Positions 3,822-63,900 of a stretch of DNA of 64,000 nucleotides are shown here, piece by piece. The notes under the pieces were generated by a model. That model was not told where the DNA came from. It saw nothing but the letters and a program-made list of their open reading frames with translations, and did not search any database. The stretch spans positions 72,957-136,956 of the forward strand of contig JAGLYZ010000001.1 of the NCBI GenBank assembly GCA_023131895.1, given 5' to 3'. The translations under genes were made by a program, and so were the position numbers. Numbering within the stretch: the stretch's first letter is position 1; each line of letters opens with the position of its first letter. Source of the DNA: Candidatus Parcubacteria bacterium. GTDB lineage: Bacteria > Patescibacteriota > Minisyncoccia > Minisyncoccales > JAGMDC01.

Positions 3822-6356
3822 ATGAAAATTTTATCAAAACTATTCGGTGATGCTAATGAAAAATATTTAAAAAAGATTCAACCAATTGTTGATGAGATAA
3901 ACAGCCTTGAATTGCAATTCAAGGATTTTTCTAATGAAAAGCTTCGTTCAAAATCAGAAGAATTCAAAGAAGAATTAAAAAAAGGCAAGACGCTTGATGA
4001 TATATTGCCAAGAGCTTTTGCATTAGTGCGAGAGGCGGCAAAAAGAACTTTAAATCAAAGGCATTTTGATGTCCAAATAATCGGCGGCATTGTTTTACAC
4101 CAAGGTAAAATCGCGGAAATGAAAACTGGAGAAGGAAAAACATTAGCTTCTACTCTGCCAATTTATTTAAATGCTTTAACAGATAAAGGCGTTCATGTGG
4201 TAACAGTTAATGATTATTTAACTAAAAGAGATACTGTCTGGATGGGGCAGATATACGACTTTCTTGGGTTGTCAGTTGGGTGCATTGTTCATGATACTGC
4301 TTATATTTATGATCCTAACTTTGGCAAGTCAGAAATCTCAAACAATGAAAGAGATGAAGAAAGAGATATTCTTGGCGGTTTTAAAGTGAGTGAGAGTTAC
4401 TTGCGTCCATGTTCAAGGAAGGATGCATACCAAGCAGATATTACTTATGGCACCAACAATGAATTTGGTTTTGATTGTTTAAGGGATAATATGGTTTATG
4501 AATTAAAAGACAAAGCTCAGCGAGAATTTGATTTCGCGATTGTTGATGAAGTTGATTCAATTTTAATTGATGAGGCTAGAACGCCTTTAATCATTTCAGC
4601 TCCTGATATAGAAGCCACAAAAATGTATTCAGAATTTGCCAGTATTATTCCTAAGTTGAATAAAGAAACTGATTATGAAATTGATGAAAAAATGAAAGCA
4701 GTTACTCTTACTGAACCAGGCATTGAAAAAATAGAGAAAATTTTAGGCATGGAAAATATTTATCAAGAAAAAGGCATTAAATATCTGCATCATTTGGAAC
4801 AGTCCTTGCGCGCCCAAGCGCTTTTTAAAAAAGACAAAGATTATGTGGTGAAACCTGCCTCGCCGCAAGGCGGGGACGGGCAAGTTATTATTGTTGATGA
4901 TTTTACCGGCCGCTTGCTTCCAGGCCGTCGTTATTCCGGTGGACTGCATCAGGCGATTGAGGCAAAAGAAGGAGTTGATGTCCAGCCAGAATCAAAAACA
5001 TTAGCTTCAATTACTTTTCAGAATTATTTCCGGCTTTACAATAAGCTAGCTGGAATGACAGGAACAGCAGCCACTTCAGGCGAAGAATTTGACAAAGTTT
5101 ATGGTTTGGAAGTTGTTATTATACCGACAAACAAGCCAATGGTTCGCGAGGTATTGCCGGATAGAATTTATAAAACAGAAAACGGAAAATTTAAATCAGT
5201 TGTGTCAGAGATTAAGAAAAGGCATGAGACAGGCCAGCCAATTCTGGTTGGCACCACTTCTATTGAAAAGAATGAGTATCTTGGCAAGCTGTTAGATATG
5301 GAAGGAATTCCTCATCAGATTTTAAACGCCAAGCATCATCAGAAAGAAGGAGAAATTATTGCCCAGGCAGGCAGATATAAGGCAGTAACTATTGCTACTA
5401 ATATGGCTGGAAGAGGAGTAGATATAATTTTAGGCGGCAATCCTTTTGATAAAGAGGAGGCAGAAAAAGTTATTAAAAGCAATGGTCTTTGCGTTATTGG
5501 CACAGATAGGCATGAAGCGAGGAGAATTGATAATCAGCTTAGGGGCAGGTCTGGAAGGCAGGGTGATCCTGGCTCTTCCCAGTTCTTTGTTTCTTTGGAA
5601 GATGATTTGCTAAGGATTTTCGGCGGAGAAAGAATTCAGAAAATGATGGAAATGCTGAAAATTCCAGAAGACCAGCCAATTGAAGCCAAAATGGTTTCAG
5701 GAGTTATTGAATCAGCGCAGGAAAAAATTGAGGGAATGAATTTTGATTTGAGAAAGCATTTATTAGATTATGATGATGTTTTAAATAAACACAGAGAGGT
5801 AATTTATAAGAAGCGGAGGGAAATCTTAGAAAAAGCTCAAGATTCAAAACTTAAAGCTCAAATTCTGGAAATAGTTAAAAAACAAGGGAAAACAGAAGCT
5901 GATTATGAGAAAAAAGAAAAAGAAATAGGTGAGGAGAATATGAGAAAAGTGGAAAAAATTATTTCTTTGCGAACTTTAGATTTTATGTGGATGGACCACT
6001 TGGAAAATATGGAATATTTGCGCGATTCTGTGCGTTTGCGTGCTTACGGACAGAAAGATCCTTTGGTGGAGTATAAAAACGAAGGGCATAAGATGTTTCG
6101 CCAGCTTCTTAATATGATTGAAGCAAATATTGTGGAAACCCTTTTTAAAGTGAGTTTAACCAAGCCTGAAGAAAAAACTGTTCCTAGTCCAGGGATGGAA
6201 TTCAGCCATCCTTCAAGTTCTGCTCCAGGAGTTTCTTCTGCCCGGCCTTCAGTCCAAAGGCCTTTAGGTAAAAGAAAAAAAATCGGCAGGAATGATCCCT
6301 GCCCCTGTGGATCGGGTAAAAAATACAAAAAGTGCTGCTGGCCCAAATATGGATAA
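3822..6356 (+). CDS. secA: Preprotein translocase ATPase SecA
   Basis: MKTGEGKTL Walker [42 protein letters not shown], and C-terminal zinc motif [13 protein letters not shown]. Confidence 0.97.
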
Positions 6357-7130: not shown

Positions 7131-8558
7131 ATGTCTAAAAAAAGAATCCGTGTCATTATTGTTCTTATTTTTATCCTGGCTTTTTCAGCAGGAAATTTTG
7201 TGGAGCCGAAATATTGGAATAACACAGCTGATGTTATTAATGCCAAGAAAAATGAGATTAGATATATTGAACGCTTAACTAATATTCCACAAATGCCTGA
7301 AAAGGATTTTGTTTTAGGATTGGATTTGCAGGGAGGCACACACTTGGTCTATGAGGCAGATATGTCTAATATTGAGAAAGATGATTATACTTCTTCTTTA
7401 CAGGGATTAAGGGATGTTATTGAAAGGAGAATTAATCTTTTTGGTATTACAGAGCCAGTTGTGCAAGTCCAGAAAACATCAGGCCATCACCGTTTAATTG
7501 TGGAATTAGCCGGAATAGATGATCCAAGCAAAGCAATTGAAATGATTGGCGAAACGCCTTTTTTGGAATTTAGAGAAGAGAGAGATGATATTGATGAGAT
7601 TATAGCCAAGAGAGAAGAAGTAAATAAATATTTTGCCGAAGGAAAAACCCTTGAAGAAATAGATAATATTGTTGAAAACTGGCATTTAGCTTTTGAAGAA
7701 CCTTTTAAATCCACAGATTTAACTGGAAAATACCTTGAAAAATCAGAATTAGGTTTTGGACAAACAGCTTATGAGCCCTTGATCCTGCTTCAGTTTGACG
7801 AGGAGGGTTCAAGGCTTTTTGAAGAATTAACAGAAAGAAATATTGGCAAGCCATTAGCTATTTATATTGACGATATTATGATTTCCAGCCCTACTGTTCA
7901 GGAAAAAATTTCTGGAGGAAAAGCACAAATTACTGGCAAGTTTACTTTAGATGAGGCAAAAGAGCTTGTCCGCAATCTTTCTGCTGGCGCTTTGCCAGTT
8001 CCAATTGCATTGATTTCCCAGCAAACAGTCGGGCCAATTTTAGGAAAGGCCTCTTTAGAAAAATCCCTGACAGCAGGAATTTACGGTTTTCTGGCAATTT
8101 TGTTGTTTTTAATAGTATTTTACCGGGTTCCTGGAATTTTATCTTCAATTGCTTTAGTTATTTATGTTCTCTTAGTTTTAAGTATATTTAAGCTTATGTC
8201 AGTTACTTTAACCTTGGCTGGTATAGGCGGATTTATTTTATCTATTGGAATGGCTGTAGATGCTAATATCTTAATTTTTTCCAGAATGAGAGAGGAATTA
8301 AGAGAAGGAAAAACTTTTTCCCAGAGCGTAGACCAAGGATTTAATCGGGCTTGGCCATCTATTAAAGATGGAAATTTAACTACTCTGATTGTTGCTTTTA
8401 TTTTATTTGCTTTTGGAACAAGCTTTGTGAAAGGCTTTGCTTTGACTTTGAGTTTGGGGATTCTTTTAAGCATGTTTTCTGCCATTTTTATTACTAAAAA
8501 CTTTTTAGAGTATTTTAAAGGAACACGATTAGAAAAATTTGGCAGATTATGGAAATAG
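7131..8558 (+). CDS. secD: Protein translocase subunit SecD
   Basis: LGLDLQGGTHLVYE, LGPILGKASL, and the C-terminal 6-TM SecD/SecF domain (LAGIGGFILSIGMAVDANILIF). Confidence 0.93.
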   Translation: MSKKRIRVIIVLIFILAFSAGNFVEPKYWNNTADVINAKKNEIRYIERLTNIPQMPEKDFVLGLDLQGGTHLVYEADMSNIEKDDYTSSLQGLRDVIERRINLFGITEPVVQVQKTSGHHRLIVELAGIDDPSKAIEMIGETPFLEFREERDDIDEIIAKREEVNKYFAEGKTLEEIDNIVENWHLAFEEPFKSTDLTGKYLEKSELGFGQTAYEPLILLQFDEEGSRLFEELTERNIGKPLAIYIDDIMISSPTVQEKISGGKAQITGKFTLDEAKELVRNLSAGALPVPIALISQQTVGPILGKASLEKSLTAGIYGFLAILLFLIVFYRVPGILSSIALVIYVLLVLSIFKLMSVTLTLAGIGGFILSIGMAVDANILIFSRMREELREGKTFSQSVDQGFNRAWPSIKDGNLTTLIVAFILFAFGTSFVKGFALTLSLGILLSMFSAIFITKNFLEYFKGTRLEKFGRLWK

Positions 8559-8708
8559 TGCTCGGCAATAAAGTTTTAAAGTACCGGCTGTTCAAATCTC
8601 CAGCGAGATTTGCCAGCCTACGCTCTCGCCTCGCTGCTCCGATTTAAAATCGGAGACCATGCCAGCGAGGCTCCGAGAGTTACTTTAAAACCTTATTGTC
8701 TCGCTCAC
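8558..8708. repeat. MITE/REP-like structured element filling the secD-secF spacer
   Basis: Imperfect terminal inverted repeats GTGCTCGGCAATAAAGTTTTAAAGTA (8558-8583) and TACTTTAAAACCTTATTGTCTCGCTCAC (8681-8708). GC-rich nested hairpins inside, including CTCCGATTTAAAATCGGAG at 8637-8655. Confidence 0.5.
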
Positions 8709-17896: not shown

Positions 17897-18300
17897 GTTC
17901 AAGCAGGCAAGGCAATCGCTGAGCATTCAGTTCGCTGAGTGCTTAGAGGAAAGTCCGAACACCCATTCTAAGCAATTTATGTGCTTAGTTTAAAAAGATA
18001 GCGGCTAACAGCCGTCGACCGCAAGGTTAGAGGTGCGAACAGTGACGCCGAAGCTCGAAAGAGCTGAGGCGCCGAGCACTCAGTTTGCTGAGTGCTTGGC
18101 GAATCGAGCACGTAAATTTTATGTGCTCGGGTGAAACGGCTAAATCCTTATCGGGTGCAAGAACAAGCATTTCGGCAATCTCCGGATTTGCCGAAATGAA
18201 AAAGTGGTTCGCTTTAGTCAAGAAGTAATTCTTGGCATAGATAAATGATTGCCTCCCCGCTAAAAGCGGGGAACAGAATTCGGCTTATTGCCTGCTTGGG
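17897..18300 (+). ncRNA. rnpB: RNase P RNA (bacterial)
   Basis: P4 strands GAGGAAAGTCCGAAC and ACAGAATTCGGCTTA. P1 pairing CAAGCAGGCAA/TTGCCTGCTTG. Local GC is higher than the surroundings. Confidence 0.93.
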
Positions 18301-18337
18301 CTTTTTTATTTACAAAAAACAAGTTAAAATAAGATTG

Positions 18338-19021
18338 ATGTATTCTAAAAAAATTGTTATCAGTATAAATGAAGAAAAATGGGCTCGCTATCCCATAAAG
18401 ACGCATTTTATTGAAACAAAAGATAGGCTGGAAGACATTATTGAGAGATATGTTCTTTCTTCTGTTGAGAAAAATGATATTGTTGTTTTATGCCAGAAAA
18501 TTGTTGCCATTATACAGGGCAAAATAGTTTATAAAAAAGATGTCAGTCCGGGAAATTGGGCTGTGTTTTTATCTAGGTTTGCTAAAAAAACTCCTTATGG
18601 TTTTTCAGTAGGCAATCCTTTAAAAATGCAGGTCGCTATTTCATTAGCAGGCCTGCCCAGAATTTTATTAGCAAGTTTTTTAGGAGGTATTGCTAAAATT
18701 TTTGGCATCAGAGGAATCTTTTACAGAGTAGCCGGGCATCAAATAAATCAAATAGACGGGTTTTACGGAGATGCATTTCCTCAATATTCTGAAATGGGTA
18801 TCTTAGGGCTTGAGAATCTTGATGACTTCTGCAATCAATTAAAAGAGAAATATGACGTTTCTTTTGTTGCGGCAGATATAAATGATTTGGGGGGAAATAT
18901 CTTGGGAAAGAGTGATGATTTAAAAGGCAAGGATAAATTATTGCTTCAGCTCTTAAAAGATAATCCTGCTGGCCAGTCAAACCAGCAGACGCCAATAATT
19001 ATTTTGCGAAAAAATGATTAG
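18338..19021 (+). CDS. CofE-like (F420-0:gamma-glutamyl ligase family fold) protein
   Basis: Start moved to ATG 18338 because the longer ORF overlaps rnpB. IVVLCQKIVAIIQGK and DNPAGQSNQQTPIII resemble the CofE-family pattern, recalled from memory. Confidence 0.45.
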   Translation: MYSKKIVISINEEKWARYPIKTHFIETKDRLEDIIERYVLSSVEKNDIVVLCQKIVAIIQGKIVYKKDVSPGNWAVFLSRFAKKTPYGFSVGNPLKMQVAISLAGLPRILLASFLGGIAKIFGIRGIFYRVAGHQINQIDGFYGDAFPQYSEMGILGLENLDDFCNQLKEKYDVSFVAADINDLGGNILGKSDDLKGKDKLLLQLLKDNPAGQSNQQTPIIILRKND

Positions 19022-20405
19022 AAGAGTTTTTAATCTACAAACAAAAAACATTAATTCAGCTGCTTTGATTTTGGGCGTGGCTTTTTTAATCAGCGCTCTT
19101 TTAGGTTTTATTAGGGATCGGCTTTTAGCCGGGAAATTCGGCGCTGGAGATGAATTAGATATCTATTATGCTGCTTTTGAAATTCCGGATTTTTTGACAA
19201 TGGTCTTAATGACAGGCGCTATTTCCGCAGCCATTATCCCTATTTTCAGTGAATATTTAATTTCTTCAAAAGAAAAGGCATGGGAGTATCTTTCTAATCT
19301 TGTTAATTTGTTTTTGTTTATTTTAATAATTGCTTCTCTTATTTTGTTTATATTTGCCCCTCAATTAATTTCTATAATTACCCCTGGTTTTTCCGGTGAA
19401 AAGAAAGAATTAACAATACTTTTAACTAGAATTATGTTTTTAAGCCCGATTATCTTGGGAATGAGCAATATTTTCTCTGCAGTCCTGCGCGTTTTTAAGA
19501 GATTTTTCATTACTTCTTTAGCTCCCATAGTATATAATCTTGGTATTATTTTTGGCATTTTATTTTTTGTTCCCTATATGGGCATTAAAGGTTTGGCTTG
19601 GGGAGTAGTATTTGGAGCTTTCCTGCATTTTTTGATCCAGATTCCGATTTTATTTAAAACAGGATTTAGGCATCAAAAACTTTTTAATTTTTTTGAACCG
19701 AGTTTTAGAAAAACAATAAAACTAACCATTCCCAGATCCATAGGTTTGGCAGCTGCTCAAATTAATTTAGTAGTAGTGACCATAATTGCTTCTACTTTGA
19801 GCGCTGGAAGCATAGCTGTTTTTAATTTAGCTGAAAATCTTTCACGTCCTCTTTTGACATTAGCGGCAATCTCTTTTTCCACTGCTGCTTTTCCCAGTTT
19901 AAGCTTGTCATTCGCTAAAAAGCAAAAAGAAAAATTTGACAAAATTTTTCTCTCTGTTTTTTATAAAATTCTTTTTTTAAGCTTATTTTTAAGTATTCTC
20001 CTTTTTCTTTTTAAAGAAGAAGTAGTCAACATTATTCTGGGAGTGGGGAGGTTCAGTTTGCTTGATGCGCAATTAACTTCTGCTTGTCTGGGAATGCTTT
20101 GTTTCGGCATTTTTGCCCAATCATTGGTTCTTTTAATCGCTAAAACATTTTACGCTGTCCAAAATACTAAGATCCCGGCTTTCACCAGTGTAGCGGCAAC
20201 CCTGTTAAATATTTTTCTTTGCTTTTATTTTGTTCATTTGCTTTCTTTCGCTAATTCTTTCCAGCAGTTTTGGACAGGTTTTCTTAATATTGAGAGTTTA
20301 GCAAATATTCAGGTTATTGGCCTGCCTTTAGCCCTGTCTCTTTCAGCTATTTTTCAACTTGCCTTGCTTTTAATATTTTCAACCAAATTAAAATGGAACC
20401 AATAA
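19014..20405 (+). CDS. murJ: Lipid II flippase MurJ/MviN
   Basis: AALILGVAFLISALLGFIRDRLLAGKFGAG...YYAAFEIPDF N-terminal signature and about 14 TM segments. Confidence 0.9.
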   Translation: MIRRVFNLQTKNINSAALILGVAFLISALLGFIRDRLLAGKFGAGDELDIYYAAFEIPDFLTMVLMTGAISAAIIPIFSEYLISSKEKAWEYLSNLVNLFLFILIIASLILFIFAPQLISIITPGFSGEKKELTILLTRIMFLSPIILGMSNIFSAVLRVFKRFFITSLAPIVYNLGIIFGILFFVPYMGIKGLAWGVVFGAFLHFLIQIPILFKTGFRHQKLFNFFEPSFRKTIKLTIPRSIGLAAAQINLVVVTIIASTLSAGSIAVFNLAENLSRPLLTLAAISFSTAAFPSLSLSFAKKQKEKFDKIFLSVFYKILFLSLFLSILLFLFKEEVVNIILGVGRFSLLDAQLTSACLGMLCFGIFAQSLVLLIAKTFYAVQNTKIPAFTSVAATLLNIFLCFYFVHLLSFANSFQQFWTGFLNIESLANIQVIGLPLALSLSAIFQLALLLIFSTKLKWNQ

Positions 20406-22243
20406 AAAAACAGATTCGCAATTTTGTAATTATTTCGCATGTGGACCATGGCAAATCTACTTTAGCAGACAGGTTTTTAGAACTGACTAATACTGTTCCA
20501 GACAACAAAATGCAGGAGCAGTTTTTAGATATGATGGATTTGGAAAGAGAAAGAGGAATTACAATCAAACTTCAGCCAGTTAGAATGGAATTAGATACAG
20601 ATAGTTTAAAAATTAAAAATTTAAAATTAAAAATTCCAGATTCAAAATTTATTTTGAATCTGGTTGATACTCCTGGACATGTAGATTTTTCCTATGAGGT
20701 TTCCCGCGCGTTAGCGGCTGTAGAAGGAGCTATTTTATTAGTAGATGCTGCGAAAGGAGTCCAGGCGCAAACATTGGCTAATTTAGAATTAGCCAAAAAG
20801 CAGGGATTAGCAATTATTCCAATAATTAATAAAATTGATTTACAGCAAGCGAGAACCGAAGAAACAAAGCAGGAATTAGCTAAGCTCTTAAACATTTCAG
20901 AACAAGACATCCTGTCTATTTCTGCTAAAAAAGGCATTAATATTGAAAAAGTTTTAGAAGCGATAATTGCCAAAGTAAAGCCTCCAGAAATAAATCAGGA
21001 CAGGCCTTTGCGAGCTTTGATTTTTGATTCAAAATTTGATTCTTATAAAGGAGTAATTGCCTATGTCCGAGTTATAGACGGCCAGATCAGCAATGATGAG
21101 AAAATATATTTAATGGCTTCTGAAACTGAATCAAAAATAAAAGAACTCGGTTATTTCAAGCCGGAATTGTCTCCCCAAAAAAAGCTATCAGCTGGTGAAA
21201 TAGGGTATATTGCCACTGGCATTAAAGAACCTGGAAAGGTGAGAGTAGGAGACACCATAACCAAGTTAAAAGTTAAAAGTGAAAAGTTAAAAATTGTTGA
21301 TATTGAGGCGTTGCCGGGTTATAAAGAGCCGAAGCCGGTTGTTTTTATAAGCGTGTATCCAGAGAATAGTGATAGATACGGCTTACTAAGAGAATCTTTG
21401 AACAAATTGAAGCTTAATGATGCTTCTTTGTATTTTGAGCCGGAACATAAGGAGATTTTTGGACAGGGATTCCGCTGCGGATTTCTTGGTTCTCTTCATT
21501 TAGAAATTACAGTAGAACGTCTTCACCGGGAATTTGATTTAGATTTAGTAGTTTTTTCGCCTTCAGTTGTTTATAAAATTATAGATAAAGTGGATAAGGA
21601 AATTTTTGTTTATTCATCAGCTGAATGGCCGGATCTCGCGATAATAAAAGAAATTCAAGAGCCGTATGTGAAGCTGGAAATAATCTGTTTTTCAGACGCC
21701 TTAGGCAATATAATGAAAATCTTAGATGAATTGCAAGGCAGGTATATCAAGACAGAATATCTTGGGTTAAATAAACCGCTATTGACTTATCATATTCCTT
21801 TAAGAGAAGTAATCACTGGTTTTTATGATAAGCTTATGTCTGTGAGCCAAGGTTATGCTTCTATGAATTATGAAATTTTAGGATATGAAAAATCCGATTT
21901 AGTCAAACTAGAAATATTAATAATCGGAAAAAAAGAGGAAGCATTTTCAAGAATCGTTCCAAAAGAAAAAGCATATCCAGAAGCAAGGACATTTTTAAAG
22001 AAAATAAAAGAAGTGCTGCCTCAGCAGCAATTCAGTGTTCCTTTGCAGGCCGTAATTGGCGGCAAGATAATTGCCAGAGAAACAATCAGCTCCAGAGGAA
22101 AGGATGTTATTGCTCCTCTTTACGGCGGCGATTATAGCAGAAAAAGAAAACTTTTGGAAAAGCAGAAAAAGGGGAAAAAGAAACTCAAGGAAAAAGCCCA
22201 GATTAAAATCCCTTCCGATGTTTATCTAAAAGTTTTGAGTTAA
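20393..22243 (+). CDS. lepA: Elongation factor 4 (LepA)
   Basis: IRNFVIISHVDHGKSTLADR, DTPGHVDF, NKIDL, and the LepA C-terminal domain (YDKLMSVSQGYASMNYE). Confidence 0.95.
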   Translation: MEPIKKQIRNFVIISHVDHGKSTLADRFLELTNTVPDNKMQEQFLDMMDLERERGITIKLQPVRMELDTDSLKIKNLKLKIPDSKFILNLVDTPGHVDFSYEVSRALAAVEGAILLVDAAKGVQAQTLANLELAKKQGLAIIPIINKIDLQQARTEETKQELAKLLNISEQDILSISAKKGINIEKVLEAIIAKVKPPEINQDRPLRALIFDSKFDSYKGVIAYVRVIDGQISNDEKIYLMASETESKIKELGYFKPELSPQKKLSAGEIGYIATGIKEPGKVRVGDTITKLKVKSEKLKIVDIEALPGYKEPKPVVFISVYPENSDRYGLLRESLNKLKLNDASLYFEPEHKEIFGQGFRCGFLGSLHLEITVERLHREFDLDLVVFSPSVVYKIIDKVDKEIFVYSSAEWPDLAIIKEIQEPYVKLEIICFSDALGNIMKILDELQGRYIKTEYLGLNKPLLTYHIPLREVITGFYDKLMSVSQGYASMNYEILGYEKSDLVKLEILIIGKKEEAFSRIVPKEKAYPEARTFLKKIKEVLPQQQFSVPLQAVIGGKIIARETISSRGKDVIAPLYGGDYSRKRKLLEKQKKGKKKLKEKAQIKIPSDVYLKVLS

Positions 22244-22283
22244 GGGTGTATTGAAATAATGAGGAAATTTTATTAGGATAAAA

Positions 22284-22388
22284 TTAGAAAAGAGGGGCGA
22301 AGAGGAAGCCAATCATACCTAAAACAACCATGGATATTAAAATAATCCAGATTGCTTTAAAAATTGTTTTTCCTTTAATTTTAGACAT
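22284..22388 (-). CDS. Possible 34-aa single-TM peptide (MSKIKGKTIFKAIWIILISMVVLGMIGFLFAPLF)
   Basis: Below the ORF-track cutoff. Fills an otherwise unexplained 150-nt gap. No SD. Confidence 0.2.
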   Translation of the reverse strand: MSKIKGKTIFKAIWIILISMVVLGMIGFLFAPLF

Positions 22389-22394
22389 TGTTTT

Positions 22395-22787
22395 ATGATA
22401 ACAAAAAAAAGAAAATATGGAAAGAAAGGAGATAATGATTTGCGTTCATTATTGTATTTTCTGTTTTTTTTGATTTTTGTATTTGGGATAATAAGTTATC
22501 TGATTATTTCTAATTGGAATATAACTCAAAAAAGAGCTGAACTTCGCTTGCAAAAGCAAGAATTGCAGAGAGAAGTGCAGGCCTTAGAAGCAAGAAAGGC
22601 GCAGCTGGAGGCTGGAGTTTATCAAACAACCCAAGATGAATATTTAGAGGAGAAAATCAGGGAGCAGGGCTATAAAAAGCAGGGCGAGGAGGCAGTGGTA
22701 ATTAAAAAAGAAATAGAGGATGAAAATCAGGTACAAAAAGAACGAGGTTTTTTAGATAAATTTTTAGAAAAATTTATCGATAAATAG
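22395..22787 (+). CDS. Septum formation initiator family protein (FtsB/DivIC-like)
   Basis: N-terminal TM, coiled coil LQKQELQREVQALEARKAQLE, then EEKIREQGYKKQGEEAVVI. Confidence 0.65.
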   Translation: MITKKRKYGKKGDNDLRSLLYFLFFLIFVFGIISYLIISNWNITQKRAELRLQKQELQREVQALEARKAQLEAGVYQTTQDEYLEEKIREQGYKKQGEEAVVIKKEIEDENQVQKERGFLDKFLEKFIDK

Positions 22788-22808
22788 TCCATATTTAGAT
22801 ATATATGT

Positions 22809-22865
22809 CCAGCCTTCGCTGACTTTGCGGGCTTTGCCCGCCGAAGCCAGCTACGGCTGGCGAAG
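22809..22865 (+). repeat. GC-rich palindromic repeat cluster abutting the tRNA-Gly 5' end
   Basis: CCTTCGC pairs with GCGAAGG. Inner hairpins GCGGGC-TTT-GCCCGC and GCCAGC-TACG-GCTGGC. Shares the GCTACGGC(G/T)GG core with the mnmA inserts. Confidence 0.6.
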
Positions 22866-22936
22866 GCGGGATTAGTATAGTGGCAGTACATGACCTTCCC
22901 AAGGTCAGGGCGCCGGTTCGATTCCGGTATCCCGCT
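22866..22936 (+). tRNA. tRNA-Gly (anticodon CCC)
   Basis: Manual cloverleaf: acceptor GCGGGAT/ATCCCGC, anticodon arm TGACC-TTCCCAA-GGTCA, T-loop TTCGATT. Confidence 0.85.
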
Positions 22937-22940
22937 ATTT

Positions 22941-23012
22941 GCCGGGATAGCTCAGTGGAAGAGCAGCGGTTTCGTAAATCGCAGGTCGAGAGTTCAAATC
23001 TCTCTCCCGGCT
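22941..23012 (+). tRNA. tRNA-Thr (anticodon CGU)
   Basis: Acceptor GCCGGGA/TCCCGGC, D arm GCTC-AGTGGAA-GAGC, anticodon loop TTCGTAA, T arm GAGAG-TTCAAAT-CTCTC, followed by a T-run. Confidence 0.85.
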
Positions 23013-23032
23013 CTTTTTTTCCGATTAATGTT

Positions 23033-23185
23033 TTAGGCAAGGACATTTGTCGGTTCGTTAATTGATAATAATTGTAGCATTTCATTGGGTGTTTTTCCGT
23101 TCAGTCCGCAGTGCTCAAGGTTATTATATTCATCATTCCATACTTTTATTTTTCTTTCCAGTTCTTTTAGATTTCTAAAATCACT
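23033..23185 (-). pseudogene. C-terminal ~50-codon remnant of a DDE (integrase-core/rve type) transposase
   Basis: Minus-strand translation SDFRNLKELERKIKVWNDEYNNLEHCGLNGKTPNEMLQLL matches the W..YN..RPH..L.GKTP.E tail of rve-domain transposases. Truncated by an upstream TGA. Confidence 0.5.
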
Positions 23186-23193
23186 TCAAACTC

Positions 23194-23222
23194 TTGACAA
23201 GATTTTAATGGTATATTATAAT
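23194..23222 (+). promoter_or_regulatory. Consensus sigma-70 promoter
   Basis: TTGACA (23194-23199), exactly 17 nt, TATAAT (23217-23222). Confidence 0.75.
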
Positions 23223-23228
23223 ACAAGC

Positions 23229-24324
23229 GTTAGAGAATAAAAATAGTTTTTTGAAAAAAATAAATAATATAAAGGTTATTAAAGGAGAGAGTAATAACCA
23301 TTAGCCATCAAATTTGATGATTATAATCATGTTTAAATAGGCGACTCTCTCTAAGAGTCGCTTATTTAAATAAAAGTTATACATGGTAGGGAGAGGGATG
23401 AAGAGGAGAGAGTACCCTGGATTTGCGGAGACCAGCAAAATAATGCTGTAGGCAGGAATCGTTAAAGGTTGCTTGCCATTACTACTCTAATCTGGAGTAT
23501 CAAAAAAATCTTCTTCATCCCTTTCCTTAATATAAGAGGAGAGAAATAATAATAGTTCTTTATTCAAAATAGTTCTTTAATACAAGCGATGAACGGGATT
23601 AAGGATTGAGCAATTAAACCCTGAATAAGAGCAATCTTGTATAGGGTAGAGGAGAGAGGTAATCCTTAGTTAGTTCTCGCAAAACAAAAATTAGTAGTGA
23701 GTGTCTGCTTCGGAGTTCTCGGAGCGACGGTTCCGGAGATGAAAGCCTCTACGCTGTTTTTGGCGAAGATGAAGCCGCCTATGGAACTGTAGGTGGCTTG
23801 GAAGGACAGGAAGAAGTGCAGGAAACAACAGAACAACTGGTGGAACGGTACGAAATTCGCGACGGCATCGCCGTAGTGGATGTCAGAGATGTCAGTGATG
23901 ATTACGACCGCACACAGCTTTTAGTGAAAGGAGAACAAATGGCTCCCACGAAGACAGCAGTGCTTTTGGGTAAAAACCCAGAAAGCGAGGAGATAGTCAC
24001 GATAGCGACGATGGACAAGGAACTCAATTTGGTGAACCTGTTTGGTCTGCCAAGCGGAGCGCCATTCAGGATTAGTTTGCCAGTCGCAGCTGGTTGGACA
24101 ATAGAGAAAGTGTTGAAAGCACTTTCTCACTAAAATCAAAATTTTGAAGGAAGTATACTCATTCCTTCCTCCTCTTTATTTTTAAGCTCACAAGACTTGT
24201 CCTGAGCTTGTCGAAGGATTGCGGGTTTAAAAATGAAGAATTCAAAGAGACCAGAAGCGTTCTCGCAGTAGATAAGAAATCTCTCTCCTCTCTGCTGTGA
24301 GAACACTTTTGGTCTTTTCTTTTT
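23229..24324 (+). ncRNA. Candidate ~1.1 kb highly structured transcript (large ncRNA, or a long structured leader plus a small foreign ORF)
   Basis: Bounded by the consensus promoter and a 20-bp hairpin plus T-run (24249-24324). Many long hairpins. The 3' half is GC-richer than its surroundings, as at rnpB. Four GGAGAGAG motifs. Confidence 0.4.
23798..24133 (+). CDS. Doubtful ORF (111 codons from TTG; alternative 64-aa product from ATG 23939 behind AAAGGAG)
   Basis: Open frame in the GC-rich segment. G/C-ending codons differ from all neighbouring genes. No family recognised. Confidence 0.3.
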   Translation: MEGQEEVQETTEQLVERYEIRDGIAVVDVRDVSDDYDRTQLLVKGEQMAPTKTAVLLGKNPESEEIVTIATMDKELNLVNLFGLPSGAPFRISLPVAAGWTIEKVLKALSH

Positions 24325-24447
24325 GGCGATTTTTGCTATAATTGTAAGTGAAGAAGAAATACAAGAATTTATTCTTGTATTTCAACTGAACGAGCAATTA
24401 GAAGGTTCTGCCGAGTAGAGCGAGGTAGGTTCTTATACTAAAATTGT

Positions 24448-25546
24448 ATGAAGGATTTTGAGGAAAACATCAGAAATTTAGAAGATAAAATCCTCTATTT
24501 AGAGGACCGTCTTTGACTTAGCTAAGAAACAGGAAAAAATCAAAGAATTAGAAAAAAAAGCCCAAAGGCCTGATTTCTGGAATGAAAGAGAAAAAGCAGC
24601 TGAAATTTCCCAAGAATTAGCTGATTTGAAAGAAGAAACAGAAAAATTTGAAAAATTTAAAAAGGATTTAGAGGAATTAAAAGAAATAATTAAATTAAAT
24701 GACGAGAGTTTAGAAAAAGAAATTGAAGAAAGAATTTTTCAAATTGAGAAAGAAATAAAAAAACAAGAACAGAGAACTTTTCTTTCTGGCAAATATGACA
24801 AAGGTAATGCCATACTTTCTATTTATTCTGGCGCTGGCGGACAGGATGCCCAGGACTGGGCAACAATACTTTTACGTATGTATAAAAGGTATACTGAAAG
24901 AAAAGGATTTAAAACAAAACTTTTACACCAGTCATTTGGCGAACCAGGCGGTCCAGAAGGAAGAATAGGCACAAAATCAGCGACTTTTGAAATAAAAGGA
25001 AAGTATGCTTATGGTTTTTTGAAAAAGGAAACAGGAGTTCACCGTTTAGTAAGAATTTCTCCTTTTTCTCCGCAAAAACTTCGCCATACCTCTTTTGCCT
25101 TGGTTGAAGTTCTGCCAGAAATTTCAAAAATAGATGAAGAGGAAATGAAGATTAAGCCAGATGACTTAAAAATTGATGTTTTTCGGGCTTCTGGTCCTGG
25201 AGGACAGTATGTCAACAAAAGAGAATCAGCAATCCGCATTACTTATATTCCAAGCAATACTGTGGTGAGCTGCCAGAGTGAACGCTTACAGGGATTGAAT
25301 AGGGGGAAGGCAATGAAATTATTATATGCCAAACTTTATCAATTAAGAGAAAAAGAAAGACAAAAAGAAGTTAAGAAAGCAAAGGGCAAATCAATTTCTG
25401 CTGAATGGGGAAATCAAATCAGGTCATATGTTATTCATCCTTATAAAATGGTAAAAGATTTAAGAACAGATGTGGAAACCTCTAATGTGGAAGATGTTTT
25501 AGACGGAAACTTAGATAAGTTCATTGAGGCAGAAATTAAAAAATAA
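24448..25546 (+). CDS. prfB: Peptide chain release factor 2, with programmed +1 frameshift at 24511-24517
   Basis: ORF0 is MKDFEENIRNLEDKILYLEDRL, then CTT TGA C. The +1 frame continues DLAKKQEKIKELE. SPF and GGQ motifs are present. An SD-like GAGGA lies upstream of the shift site. Confidence 0.93.
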
Positions 25547-42897: not shown

Positions 42898-43115
42898 GGT
42901 AGAATATAAAAATAGGCCTAGATTTTGTTTTTTACGATGAAAAATAAGAAGTTGACCAGGAATTTTTATATTAGGGAAACCTTGACTTTTGTTTAGGTTG
43001 AGATAAGGTGAATATACCTTAAAAATTTGGGAGAAATCAGATGAAAGAGATTAGTTTATTGAGAGTTGAATTGTTTTAGCGCTCAGTAAATTAAAAACTA
43101 AAGAGGTGATATAAG

Positions 43116-62497: not shown

Positions 62498-63685
62498 ATG
62501 AAAAAGCAATCTGCTGACTGGCGGAGAAAAACCAGAGTAGTAGTAGCGATGTCTGGAGGAGTTGATTCTTCAGTAGCAGCTGCTTTATTAAAAAAACAAG
62601 GCCTTGAAGTTCAAGGTGTTTTTTTAAATCTTTTTGATTCAGAAAGTTTTAAAGAATCAGAAAAAAGAGCTAAAAAAATAGCAGGAATTTTAGAAATTCC
62701 TTTTTTTGTTTTAGATTTAAGAAAAGAATTTAAAAAGAAGATAATTGATTATTTTATTAAAGAGCTTCAGCAAGGTAAAACACCAAATCCCTGTGTTTTA
62801 TGTAATAAAGAAATTAAGTTCGGATTTTTTTTAAAAAAGCTTAGAGAACTAAAAATTAGTTTTGATTTCATCGCCACCGGGCACTATGTAAAACTTAAAA
62901 CAAAAAACAAGAAAGCCAAAACTACAAGTCAAAAGTCAAAAGCTACTTACAAATTATTGAGAGCTAAAGATAAAGAAAAAGACCAATCATATTTTCTTTG
63001 GATGCTTAATCAAAAACAATTGAGGCAGATTTTATTTCCTATTGGAAATTATACTAAACAAGAGGTTAAAAATTTAGCTAAGAAATTTAGATTGCCGGTT
63101 TTTTCTTCTGAATCACAGGAAATTTGCTTTATTGGAAAAGATTTAAATGGCTTTCTAAGAAAGAATTTTAAAACTAAAAAAGGCGATATTATAAATACCA
63201 AAGGAGAAATTATCGGAGAACATCAAGGATTGTGCTTCTATACAATTGGCCAGAGAAAAGGCATAGGAGTTGGTGGAGGACCCGCCTCCGCTGAAGCTAC
63301 GGCGGGCAAGCCATATTATGTCTTAGATAAAGATATAAAGAAAAATATTTTAATTGTCACTAAGAACGAAAAGGACTTGCATAAAAAAGAATTAATAGTC
63401 AAAAAAATTAATTGGATTTCTGGAAAAGAGCCCTGCCTTCGCCAAGGCTACGGCGGGCAAGCAAAATTTTCTATAAAAATTAAAGCAAAAATTCGTTATC
63501 GCCACAAATCCGTTGAAGCAAAAATTACAAGGAAGTCGGACTTCCTTAAGGAAGTCCGACTTCCTAAAACTTTCAAAGAATATAAAGTGATTTTTTCACG
63601 CTCTCAGCGAGCCATTACTCCAGGCCAATCAGTAGTTTTTTACCAAAGAAACGAACTCTTAGGCGGCGGAATCATAAAAAGTTAA
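62498..63685 (+). CDS. mnmA: tRNA 2-thiouridine(34) synthase MnmA, carrying three palindromic in-frame inserts
   Basis: VVVAMSGGVDSSVAA PP-loop, NPCVLCNKEIKF, ATGHY, DQSYFL and ITPGQSVVFY. Confidence 0.93.
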   Translation: MKKQSADWRRKTRVVVAMSGGVDSSVAAALLKKQGLEVQGVFLNLFDSESFKESEKRAKKIAGILEIPFFVLDLRKEFKKKIIDYFIKELQQGKTPNPCVLCNKEIKFGFFLKKLRELKISFDFIATGHYVKLKTKNKKAKTTSQKSKATYKLLRAKDKEKDQSYFLWMLNQKQLRQILFPIGNYTKQEVKNLAKKFRLPVFSSESQEICFIGKDLNGFLRKNFKTKKGDIINTKGEIIGEHQGLCFYTIGQRKGIGVGGGPASAEATAGKPYYVLDKDIKKNILIVTKNEKDLHKKELIVKKINWISGKEPCLRQGYGGQAKFSIKIKAKIRYRHKSVEAKITRKSDFLKEVRLPKTFKEYKVIFSRSQRAITPGQSVVFYQRNELLGGGIIKS

Positions 63686-63900
63686 ATGTCACAAAGTAGC
63701 ACGATTGTGCTACTTTGTGATGGGTTTGATATAGTGATATACAAAATCTTACGAAACCGGATTTCGTAAGATTTTGTTTAGAATTTCTATTGACATATTT
63801 TTAGAAATTTGATAGAAACAAAATACCATAAAATGGTGGATCTTTTACATTTGAATATCCCACCGTATGATTATAAAAAGAAAAAGGAGGTTGATGGAAA

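Follow-up and report, generated by a model that had tools for sequence, protein, structure and literature searches.

In this Parcubacteria genome, tRNA-Thr and prfB are separated by a 1,434-nt interval across which a 12-base segment of the tRNA gene is repeated, raising the question of whether the DNA in between (the islet) was brought in by site-specific integration at the tRNA gene. This had been proposed in an initial annotation of the 64-kb stretch of DNA analysed here, called the window below. The stretch from 23028 to about 24325 is read here, with a probability of roughly 0.7, as the decayed remains of mobile DNA within a variable slot between these two genes, with no preserved integrase footprint.

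The tRNA-Thr/prfB interval

The native features on both sides of the islet are the following:

22865–22937, plus strand: tRNA-Gly(CCC) (ARAGORN; Rfam 62.8 bits)
22941–23013, plus strand: tRNA-Thr(CGT), intact (ARAGORN; Rfam 68.5 bits)
23014–23027, plus strand: native tRNA trailer TTTTTTTCCGATTA, between tRNA-Thr and the terminus of an insertion sequence (IS), the IS end being placed by DNA alignment
24334–24517, plus strand: native prfB start region (direct reading, fold, PCRF and RF-1 domains)
24334–24342, plus strand: prfB extended -10 promoter TGCTATAAT
24339–24400, plus strand: prfB 5'-UTR hairpin, followed by the ATG at 24448
24511–24517, plus strand: prfB +1 frameshift site CTT TGA C, a motif present in all relatives

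The two tRNAs were the only Rfam families detected at E <=1 on 22000–25500. Across Parcubacteria, tRNA-Gly is found in synteny with tRNA-Thr, and the gene order LepA-DivIC-tRNA-Gly-tRNA-Thr-prfB-FtsE-FtsX-tRNA-Gln is kept in about 25 species. A search for an empty site in relatives, as suggested by the initial annotation, was positive in at least nine related species (loci L002, L008, L009, L014, L018, L019, L021, L022 and L027), in which tRNA-Thr lies 0–100 nt from prfB. Therefore, the interval in the window is an insertion, specific to this lineage. The islet DNA showed no similarity to any of 80 related loci, and the relatives compared, with prfB identities of at most 72%, are too divergent for mapping its boundaries at the nucleotide level. 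Recognisable foreign DNA begins on the left at 23028, 20 nt past the first copy of the 12-mer, and on the right, foreign homology extends to at least 24240 and probably to 24324, i.e. around the second copy.

The tRNA-Thr locus is a recurrent variable slot within the clade, and real partial duplicates of the tRNA-Thr 3' end, 18–55 nt long and mostly reaching ...GGCTC, were found in five relatives. Knowledge of the tRNA-Gly/tRNA-Thr/prfB junction as such a slot in Parcubacteria may aid studies of gene flow and defence in the Candidate Phyla Radiation (CPR).

The insertion-sequence fragment and the cassette remnant

The foreign DNA beside the tRNA gene consists of one feature:

23028–23185, minus strand: IS481-family end fragment, with the terminus and the last 49 transposase codons (amino acid and DNA alignment)

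The codons of this tail, which had been correctly recognised on the minus strand from the start, run from 23179 to 23036 with a stop at 23033–23035, the element being truncated at about 23180–23190. The 49 codons share 81–88% amino acid identity with C-termini of the IS481 family in Patescibacteria, and the matched proteins are named 'IS481 family transposase, partial' by NCBI; in longer partial homologues, the alignment begins only at their residue ~40. Pfam rve_3 was detected on the tail with E=0.002, below the gathering score and over 49 C-terminal residues only, the catalytic DDE region being absent. At the DNA level, identity of about 85% to three independent copies (L107, L110 and L111) runs up to a common terminus, at 23028 in the window. 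The fragment is like IS481 in its rve_3-type end motif and in the terminus held in common with these three copies. An intact IS481 would also have a catalytic core, a second end and a target duplication; all of these are missing here, so that the copy is dead. As the other end has been deleted, no target site duplication can be defined, and the 12-mer does not adjoin the IS terminus. Apparently, an element of the IS481 family landed 14 nt past the end of tRNA-Thr, and only its terminal ~150 nt survive. The intact transposase copy that the initial annotation proposed to look for was found neither in the window nor in the 80 related loci, and a second rve gene was also absent from the window. 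The rve transposase located beside the DHH fragment in L087 was unrelated to the tail.

The features detected between the IS truncation and prfB are:

23194–23222, plus strand: cassette promoter TTGACA-17-TATAAT, 12/12 consensus match (promoter scan)
23229–23268, plus strand: cassette 5' leader, 85% identity over 41 nt to L088 (938–978) and L089 (118–158)
23270–23662, plus strand: AT-rich, hairpin-rich stretch of ~390 nt (folding), with hairpins H1 (23274–23299), H3 (23330–23372), H4 (23387–23529) and H5 (23598–23670)
23666–24133, plus strand: dead chimeric ORF (HMMER, BLASTP, tblastn and DNA alignment)
24146–24240, plus strand: cassette spacer modules A and B (alignment with eight spacer copies from L085, L087 and L089; folds)
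24146–24184, plus strand: module A, a CT-rich terminator hairpin with the end CTCTTTATTTTT
24173–24239, plus strand: module B, a palindrome TTTTTAAGCTCACAAG...CTGAGCTT...AAAAA
24245–24318, plus strand: terminator-like hairpin with a 27-bp stem and one bulge, then a T-run (-41.5 kcal/mol, z = -6.5)

A self-contained gene cassette directly adjoins the IS truncation point, with a consensus sigma-70 promoter, a leader, a Shine-Dalgarno (SD) sequence and terminator and palindrome modules, its intact relatives being found in several unrelated AT-rich metagenomic contigs. The foreign, mobile content that the initial annotation had proposed for the islet was borne out by these homologues together with the IS481 fragment. 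L086 and L091 have the same arrangement CTTGACAA...TATAAT ahead of their full-length DHH genes, and the leader lies about 70–110 nt upstream of the DHH gene in L088 and L089. BLAST matched 24162–24183 to L085 and 24175–24209 to L088/L089 in the spacer modules. The terminal hairpin was compared with a spacer of L085 (1255–1285), in a non-tRNA context, revealing a match of 18/20 positions and an adjacent 11-mer match. With z = -9.3, 24201–24400 is the most structured 200-nt segment of the 64 kb.

The hairpin-rich stretch contains SD-like ARAGGAGAGAR motifs at 23283, 23404, 23537 and 23650, and folding within it gave z-scores of -6.2, -6.3 and -2.7, compared to -10.2 for 23225–23700. All GGAGAGAG 8-mers of the window, which are complementary to the 12-mer, fall in this stretch, and no homologue of it was detected in the fetched loci or in the phage collection. 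Neither its structure nor its GGAGAGAG cluster is specifically predicted by decay, which counts against reading it as debris. Transcription from the strong promoter may still occur and would yield a non-coding RNA rich in hairpins, with its end at the 27-bp hairpin just before the prfB promoter.

The shift in composition reported in the initial annotation was confirmed by both G+C and k-mer deviation. The 400-nt segment at 23701 is the richest in G+C of the 64 kb (0.512, against an average of 0.335 with sd 0.038), and 23.7–24.1 kb is the top tetranucleotide outlier, followed by the RNase P RNA gene. This segment behaved as an ORFan in a word-indexed search of 5.8 billion proteins, before an exhaustive HMMER search returned 56 hits, the best of them to proteins of 286–326 aa matched in their C-terminal third only. 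Its interpretation as a non-coding RNA, for which z = -6 and the lack of a Pfam hit could speak, was ruled out by these 56 homologues, which identified it as the C-terminal third of ~300-aa proteins. A donor rich in G+C was also considered and rejected, as the gene family has 45–58% G+C in the closer relatives even within AT-rich contigs; high G+C is constant in the family and thus by itself no marker of recent import from such a donor. A distant, native-looking branch of the family has 28–31% G+C.

The ORF in this segment is a chimera. Its head (23714–23794) corresponds to residues 15–41 of a small cassette ORF, with 85% identity to residues 15–41 of P0039 (BLASTP), and continues in the same frame into the last ~113 residues, at the C-terminus, of a phosphoesterase of the DHH family (23798–24133), with 63% identity to residues 198–310 of P0003 (BLASTP). 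The start position (23666–23668) reads TTA opposite the ATG of L085 in the DNA alignment, no ATG, GTG or TTG precedes 23798 in the open frame, and no trace of the N-terminal DHH domain was detected by tblastn in any frame of the window. The coding part of the cassette is dead: through an internal deletion, the head of the small ORF now runs into the final third of a divergent phosphoesterase of the DHH family, and the catalytic domain is lost. The hypothetical protein KAT95_00390, under which 23798–24133 is listed in GenBank, is a pseudogene fragment.

Full-length homologues carry the N-terminal motifs AHGDLDG, VVDIA and WYDHHQGW (DxD, D and DHH) and gave weak Pfam DHH hits, and a PDB profile search revealed marginal similarity to the DHH structure 8a8k (E = 0.001). 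The conserved C-terminal domain of the family, LFGLPSGAPFRISLP, is kept in the window, without a Pfam DHHA1 hit for any member. Two distant members are fused to Cas10, and Cas10 was the only part of these two proteins recognised by NCBIfam/PADLOC models, none of which matched the family itself. With DxD, D and DHH in the N-terminal part of its full-length homologues, the family would be similar to DHH/DHHA1 phosphoesterases, among them NrN, a phosphodiesterase associated with CRISPR type III (PMC10600005). The window copy, in contrast, has no catalytic domain, and no CRISPR-Cas genes were recognised in the window. No cas genes were detected in the inspected contexts of the closest members (L085–L091), in the distant chromosomal group L099 or among the top 25 Pfam families of the large ORFs of the window.

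Transposition or illegitimate recombination presumably brought in the cassette and the IS, most of both having then been lost through deletions in which the IS may have had a part. A phage origin was not supported, with no DNA match in 50,697 phage records, no IMG/VR relative and no PHROG hits of the cassette proteins. Parts of the islet were also considered as repeats, and H4 (23387–23529) as a MITE, but no second copy of them was found in the 64 kb. The locus is ordinary genomic debris.

The 12-base repeat

A pattern search confirmed that the 12-mer AAATCTCTCTCC is exactly repeated at 22996–23007 and 24277–24288, as first noticed, with no further copy at <=1 mismatch in the 64-kb window. The first copy is made up of the last 4 nt of the T-loop, the 3' strand of the T-stem and the first 3 nt of the acceptor 3' strand; it spans positions 56–67 of the 73 of tRNA-Thr and ends 6 nt short of the tRNA 3' end. 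Identity stops beyond the 12 nt: the next 6 nt are CGGCTC at the tRNA copy vs. TCTCTG at the second copy, 8 of 10 flanking positions differ and the similarity of the flanks is not above random. A copy of the acceptor 3' end (the 22-mer GTTCAAATCTCTCTCCCGGCTC) was absent from the islet at <=6 substitutions, and local alignment gave no extension of the 12-mer into a gapped, decayed copy of the tRNA 3' half, a possibility that was thus rejected.

The frequency of such repeats was assayed with controls. Of 41-nt queries drawn at random from the genome, 2.7% had a stretch of >=12 nt directly repeated in the following 1,435 nt, a share that was 0.75% among queries with G+C >=45%. When the tRNA was aligned to random islet-sized segments, the best local alignment attained the observed score in 4.8% of trials. 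With such control rates of ~1–5%, the repeat is mildly unusual, with a nominal p of about 0.007–0.05, yet not beyond chance, as the initial annotation had cautioned.

The second copy occupies the 16–18-nt loop of the 24245–24318 hairpin, near the right edge of the foreign DNA, and its flanks ATAAGAAATCTCTYTCC...CTTTTCTTTTT recur in L085 without a tRNA there. It probably belongs to the CT-rich tract typical of the terminators of the cassette family, and that it matches the tRNA T-stem (CTCTC) is most likely due to coincidence and not to integration.

The rival possibility is that an element recombined with tRNA-Thr through a short AAATCTCTCTCC core, the two copies being attL and attR, and that the integrase and most of the cargo were deleted later. 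The islet is like the tRNA islands and prophages of tyrosine integrases in that compositionally deviant foreign DNA directly follows the 3' end of a tRNA gene, relatives have an empty site and a segment of the tRNA 3' part is directly repeated near the far end. The repeat is exact over 12 nt, with one copy in the tRNA 3' arm and the other near the right edge of the foreign DNA, and has a chance probability of ~1–5%. Moreover, the same tRNA is clearly used for integration in relatives, five of which carry true duplicates of its 3' end, and the similar motif in the L085 spacer could be an attP-like site. Nevertheless, we consider such an integration improbable. An att footprint is expected to include the 3' end of the tRNA in its repeat, which restores an intact tRNA and leaves the acceptor 3' strand on the displaced copy, and to have a tyrosine or serine recombinase gene beside one att site. 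Unlike in tRNA islands, the repeat here stops short of the acceptor 3' end, and its 12 nt contrast with the 18–55 nt, mostly to ...GGCTC, of the real footprints in relatives. A crossover at the 12-mer would imply an ancestral tRNA ending in ...CTCTC-TCCTCTC, which cannot pair with the 5' acceptor strand GCCGGGA; therefore, the ancestral attB tRNA would have had no acceptor stem and been non-functional. The flanks are no more similar than at random, and the islet is devoid of an integrase, none being found among the 25 Pfam families of a non-exhaustive list for the large ORFs of the window; the only recombinase-like sequence in the islet is the 49-codon tail of a DDE transposase, and the longest ORF of 23014–24447 has 111 aa and is the DHH-family fragment. 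Next to the tRNA, the foreign DNA begins with an IS481 end, the first base of which lies 14 nt beyond the gene, i.e. outside it, and DDE transposases of the IS481 family are not known to leave such repeats. The right copy, in turn, is placed in a hairpin loop inside a CT-rich tract common to the cassette family. Thus, of the integration proposed by the initial annotation, the lineage-specific insertion of mobile material holds, whereas the 12-mer as an att duplication does not.

The tRNA repeat of this locus should accordingly be left out of any tally of integration sites. As evidence of an att site, a short match of low complexity to a tRNA arm carries little weight, especially when it ends before the acceptor strand; at the same locus, the 18–55-nt duplicates of the relatives serve as a positive control.

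Other readings and the cassette family

Another explanation is that 23194–~24325 is a functional, domesticated non-coding unit, i.e. a ~1.1-kb structured RNA or leader acting on the expression of prfB or on the tRNA, in which the GGAGAGAG motifs, complementary to CUCUCUCC in the T-arm of tRNA-Thr and in the loop of the terminal hairpin, would provide the mode of action. Its promoter is perfectly consensus, the folding z-scores reach -10.2 (23225–23700) and -6.0 (23660–24330), the most structured 200-nt segment of the 64 kb lies at its end (24201–24400), and all five GGAGAGAG/CTCTCTCC 8-mers of the window cluster in 22996–24288. However, no Rfam match was obtained at E <=1, and 23270–23662 is without a homologue in the searched loci, so that neither conservation nor covariation supports an RNA gene. 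The G+C-rich part is demonstrably of protein-coding origin, the promoter, leader, SD and terminators are parts inherited from the cassette, and comparable z-scores were obtained in other intergenic regions of the same genome. In addition, the T-arm of a folded tRNA is inaccessible for pairing. An RNA unit is thus judged quite unlikely. An assembly chimera or binning artefact, joining unrelated reads between the tRNA and prfB, has a smaller chance still of accounting for the islet. The Logan contigs of SRR13892599 break at 23274 and 24357–24386, on either side of the islet core, but both break points are hairpins, a frequent cause of graph breaks, and Logan L084 (23274–24386) overlaps L083 by exactly 30 nt (k-1). 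Furthermore, the IS fragment, promoter and leader are continuous to the left of 23274, and two GenBank assemblies (with KAT95_ locus tags and DAOVNT010000001.1) are 100% identical over 8–9 kb across the islet, as is a Logan contig across it. The islet sequence is not an assembly artefact. The same breaks were considered as signs of an islet-free haplotype, which was set aside as both coincide with hairpins.

The degraded patch of mobile DNA preferred here contains the remnant of a cassette whose relatives share a common organization. The genes of L085, L088–L091 and L112 each come with a promoter of their own, a 5' hairpin that sequesters the SD, a terminator and a palindromic motif that recurs in the spacers and contains AAGCTC; the same cassette gene was found in differing neighbourhoods. 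These self-contained genes with their own promoter and terminator are like phage morons or integron cassettes; unlike in the latter, neither an integron integrase nor attI nor a canonical attC core (RYYYAAC/GTTRRRY) was observed, and no RYYYAAC/GTTRRRY pairs were detected by eye in the spacer palindromes of these short contigs (2–5 kb). It is conceivable, at rather long odds, that the dead unit is a relic of an undescribed kind of self-contained mobile cassette of AT-rich, Patescibacteria-like genomes, in which the AAGCTC palindromes would be the recombination sites for shuffling. If so, the CT-rich 12-mer site would be part of the machinery and may favour insertion beside a tRNA with a matching T-arm, and the G+C-rich genes of such cassettes would include the divergent DHH-family phosphoesterase that is elsewhere fused to Cas10. 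The G+C-rich DHH-like cassette, with its conserved spacer modules and occasional Cas10 fusions, provides a modest lead for work on gene flow and defence in the CPR.

The interval between tRNA-Thr and prfB

The window derives from a Candidatus Parcubacteria MAG with a mean G+C of 33.5%. The genes around the interval studied here, referred to as the islet, are as follows (window positions):

20393-22243, LepA
22395-22787, DivIC-like protein
22865-22937, tRNA-Gly(CCC)
22941-23013, tRNA-Thr(CGT)
1,434-nt gap from tRNA-Thr to prfB (the islet)
24448, ATG of prfB, with the +1 frameshift site CTT TGA C at 24511-24517
after prfB, FtsE, FtsX and tRNA-Gln, in that order

The sole match to the islet ORF in a word-indexed protein search was the 'hypothetical protein KAT95_00390'. 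Directly upstream of tRNA-Gly, and overlapping its first bases, a G+C-rich stretch of ~60 nt (about 0.55; 22800-22864) carries the inverted repeats CCAGCCTTCGC...GCGAAGGCGGG.

To compare this locus with those of relatives, prfB was scanned in one genome per species, yielding 80 loci. The order LepA-DivIC-tRNA-Gly-tRNA-Thr-prfB-FtsE-FtsX-tRNA-Gln was kept in about 25 loci of Parcubacteria/Paceibacteria, and the empty site that the initial annotation had proposed to look for was found in at least nine of the 80, in which prfB lies 0-100 nt past tRNA-Thr (L002, L008, L009, L014, L018, L019, L021, L022 and L027). Judged from this gene order, the islet is an insertion. In other species, unrelated ordinary genes occupy the space between tRNA-Thr and prfB or between tRNA-Gly and tRNA-Thr (for instance an 818-aa ORF in L003, or, in L030, L037 and L044, an ORF with a CxxC motif and, after it, a membrane ORF), so that the junction is a variable slot. 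Insertions of 0.6-2.8 kb between tRNA-Gly(CCC) and tRNA-Thr(CGT) were also seen in L004, L006, L017, L021, L011 and L029, both tRNAs thus bordering variable slots. No DNA similarity to the islet was detected among the 80 prfB loci, and as the closest available relative shows only 72% prfB identity, the boundaries of the islet cannot be mapped by alignment.

Fragments of an IS481 element and of a DHH cassette

The islet had been described as foreign, mobile DNA beside a tRNA, with a transposase tail on the minus strand and a shift to higher G+C, and these features were all recovered, as an IS481 end on the left and a dead cassette on the right. The transposase tail, reading SDFRNLKELERKIKVWNDEYNNLEHCGLNGKTPNEMLQLLSINEPTNVLA*, had 27 homologues with 61-90% identity, all of them short because assemblies break inside multicopy IS; one, from Portnoybacteria, bore the name 'IS481 family transposase, partial', and rve_3 was present in several. 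DNA alignment with three independent IS copies (L107, L110 and L111; about 85% identity) placed their shared terminus at 23028, 14 nt past tRNA-Thr. The alignment with longer partial homologues starts only at their residue ~40 (window 23179 to 23036), showing that the IS copy in the window is genuinely truncated near 23180. An intact copy of the transposase was also looked for, but the window contains no other rve gene.

In the right part, G+C is 0.49-0.53 from about 23690 to 24130. The 400-nt segment at 23701 is the G+C maximum of the 64 kb (+4.6 sd) and the 600-nt segment at the same position its strongest tetranucleotide outlier (+5.8 sd), the second-ranked compositional outlier being the RNase P RNA gene (17900-18302). 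The latter, a bacterial class A RNA (Rfam, 125.5 bits), is also a strongly structured window, and a mechanically listed ORF (18245-19021) overlaps its 3' end.

The G+C-rich open frame at 23663-24133 lacks any ATG, GTG or TTG before 23798. Searching 1.84 billion representatives exhaustively with HMMER revealed 56 homologues, the best of which (286-326 aa) were matched only via their C-terminal third (P0002, 69%; P0003, 66%; P0005, 46%). Full-length homologues carry the N-terminal DHH-superfamily motifs AHGDLDG, VVDIA and WYDHHQGW, with weak Pfam DHH matches; no trace of this N-terminal domain was found in the window by tblastn in any frame. Residues 18-44 of the translation show 85% identity to the head region of another small ORF, P0039, which sits ahead of phosphoesterase-like genes in the cassette contigs L085 and L112, and residues 46-156 align to residues 198-310 of P0003, so that a P0039-like head and a P0003-like tail share one frame as an in-frame deletion chimera. 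Aligned at the DNA level, the small ORF of L085 has its ATG opposite a TTA of the window (23666-23668). This TTA is located 6-7 nt past AGAGGAGAGAGG, which is thus the Shine-Dalgarno sequence of the small ORF. On these alignments, the 111-aa protein of the annotation is a fragment of a pseudogene.

The non-coding parts of the islet are, by sequence similarity, cassette-derived as well. A perfect promoter (TTGACA-17-TATAAT, 23194-23222) has counterparts upstream of full-length genes in L086 and L091, and 23229-23268 is 85% identical to a leader in L088 and L089. Past the stop codon, 24146-24240 comprises a CT-rich terminator hairpin ending in CTCTTTATTTTT and a palindrome on TTTTTAAGCTC...GAGCTT...AAAAA; L085, L087 and L089 together provide eight spacer copies that align to this segment. 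In closer relatives the DHH-like gene has 45-58% G+C and the remainder of each contig less, mostly 28-46%; therefore, the G+C shift is a family trait. Every occurrence of two 8-mers in the 64 kb, three of GGAGAGAG and two of CTCTCTCC, falls within 22996-24288, and 23270-23662 holds three further SD-like ARAGGAGAGAR motifs; these may have been left behind by lost cassette heads.

The locus is an ordinary degraded islet, and its origin as debris of mobile elements was given a probability of roughly 0.7. In the most likely history, an IS481 element would have inserted just past tRNA-Thr, a promoter-bearing cassette would then have arrived, and later deletions would have left fragments of both.

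The 12-nt repeat and other readings of the islet

Exact copies of AAATCTCTCTCC lie at 22996-23007 and 24277-24288, as initially annotated, and the window has no further one with up to one mismatch. Of random genomic positions, 2.7% had a direct repeat of at least 12 nt of a 41-nt query within the next 1,435 nt (0.75% where the query had a G+C of 45% or more), and the observed tRNA alignment score was reached by random islet-sized segments in 4.8% of trials. The repeat is thus mildly unusual, yet within reach of chance given the many places open to a reader, in line with the caveat made at the outset.

Its reading as the classical footprint of site-specific integration, with the two copies as att sites, found no support and is unlikely. 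The identity stops 6 nt short of the tRNA-Thr 3' end, with unrelated flanks, and a crossover in the core would imply a pre-integration tRNA ending in ...CTCTC-TCCTCTC, whose 3' acceptor strand would be unable to pair with GCCGGGA. There is no integrase at the islet; the sole recombinase relic is the DDE transposase tail, its terminus 20 nt past the first copy. The second copy occupies the 16-18-nt loop of a hairpin with a 27-bp stem and a T-run after it (24245-24318, -41.5 kcal/mol, z = -6.5); no other 200-nt window in the 64 kb is more structured than the one here. Its context, ATAAGAAATCTCTCTCC...CTTTTCTTTTT, matches a spacer of L085, a contig without tRNA, at 18/20 and the adjoining 11/11 positions, and in terminators of the DHH cassette family the 3' arms are as a rule CT-rich. 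Real footprints differ: five relatives carry duplicates of the tRNA-Thr(CGT) 3' part (18-55 nt), 13-100 nt downstream of the intact gene, that reach ...GGCTC in alignment in all except the L010 copy:

L005, 5065-5119
L010, about 654-740
L030, 4708-4749
L034, 5724-5742
L037, 1164-1181

These resemble genuine scars of integration or excision, which would make tRNA-Thr a recurrent integration site in Parcubacteria. By eye, the tRNA-Thr 3'-half copies of L010 (about 654-740) and L034 (about 5670-5742) are apparently split within the T-loop, where a G+C-rich hairpin (~40 nt) intervenes.

The segment 23225-23700 is strongly structured (z = -10.2), with the hairpins H1 (23274-23299), H3 (23330-23372) and H4 (23387-23529) at z about -6 each, and might be read as part of a functional structured RNA unit. 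Strong hairpins are, however, common in the intergenic DNA of this genome, so structure alone is no evidence for an RNA gene; 23270-23662 had no homologues in all data searched, and this reading is quite improbable. Other strongly structured 200-nt windows (63401-63800, 8501-8700 and 42901-43100; z -5.9 to -7.3) had no Rfam match at gathering threshold. An assembly artefact is a very improbable origin; an identical (100%) sequence is also present in GCA_030630045.1 (contig DAOVNT010000001.1). To either side of the islet core, the Logan contigs of run SRR13892599 are interrupted, L084 covering 23274-24386 and L083 starting at 24357 with a 30-nt overlap. Both break points (23274 and 24357-24386) are at hairpins, and the breaks could reflect a graph artefact or population heterogeneity.

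The DHH cassette family

The cassette family itself is a modest lead worth keeping. In the cassette contigs every gene has its own promoter, an SD-sequestering 5' hairpin just ahead of the ATG and terminator modules. The hairpin is conserved, with an SD-like 3' arm (CCACCACCTCC...GGAGGTGGTGG-aaa-ATG; L086 7940-8000, L089 163-209 and 1270-1316, and upstream of the DHH gene in L090 and L091), which suggests translational control through SD sequestration. The motif AAGCTCTTTAAAAA or the palindrome TTTTTAAGCTC...GAGCTTAAAAA is found repeatedly at the edges of G+C-rich genes within AT-rich contigs (L086 7922; L090 485, 1316, 1380 and 2448; L091 377 and 1473; L088/L089; window 24184), and AAGCTC is several-fold above expectation in L086 and L088-L091 but absent from L085 and L087; such elements may act as regulatory repeats or as sites of recombination. 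L112 (1169-2162) and L085 (2069-3227) share a small leader ORF and its upstream region, followed by a FDHHGEN-containing protein in the former and a DHH-like gene in the latter, which indicates putative module shuffling between cassettes.

The distant relatives P0010 (700 aa) and P0027 (871 aa) have an N-terminal Cas10 fusion (Cas10/Cmr2 palm2 domain; PADLOC Cas10 E = 1e-64), suggesting that the DHH-like family is tied to type III CRISPR signalling. DHH phosphodiesterases of the NrN type are known to partner type III CRISPR systems (PMC10600005). No NCBIfam or PADLOC model matched the stand-alone DHH-like proteins. L087 encodes an intact rve transposase of 334 aa (716-1720; HTH_28, HTH_32, rve and rve_3), situated 350 nt past the 3' end of another DHH gene and unrelated to the IS481 tail of the window.
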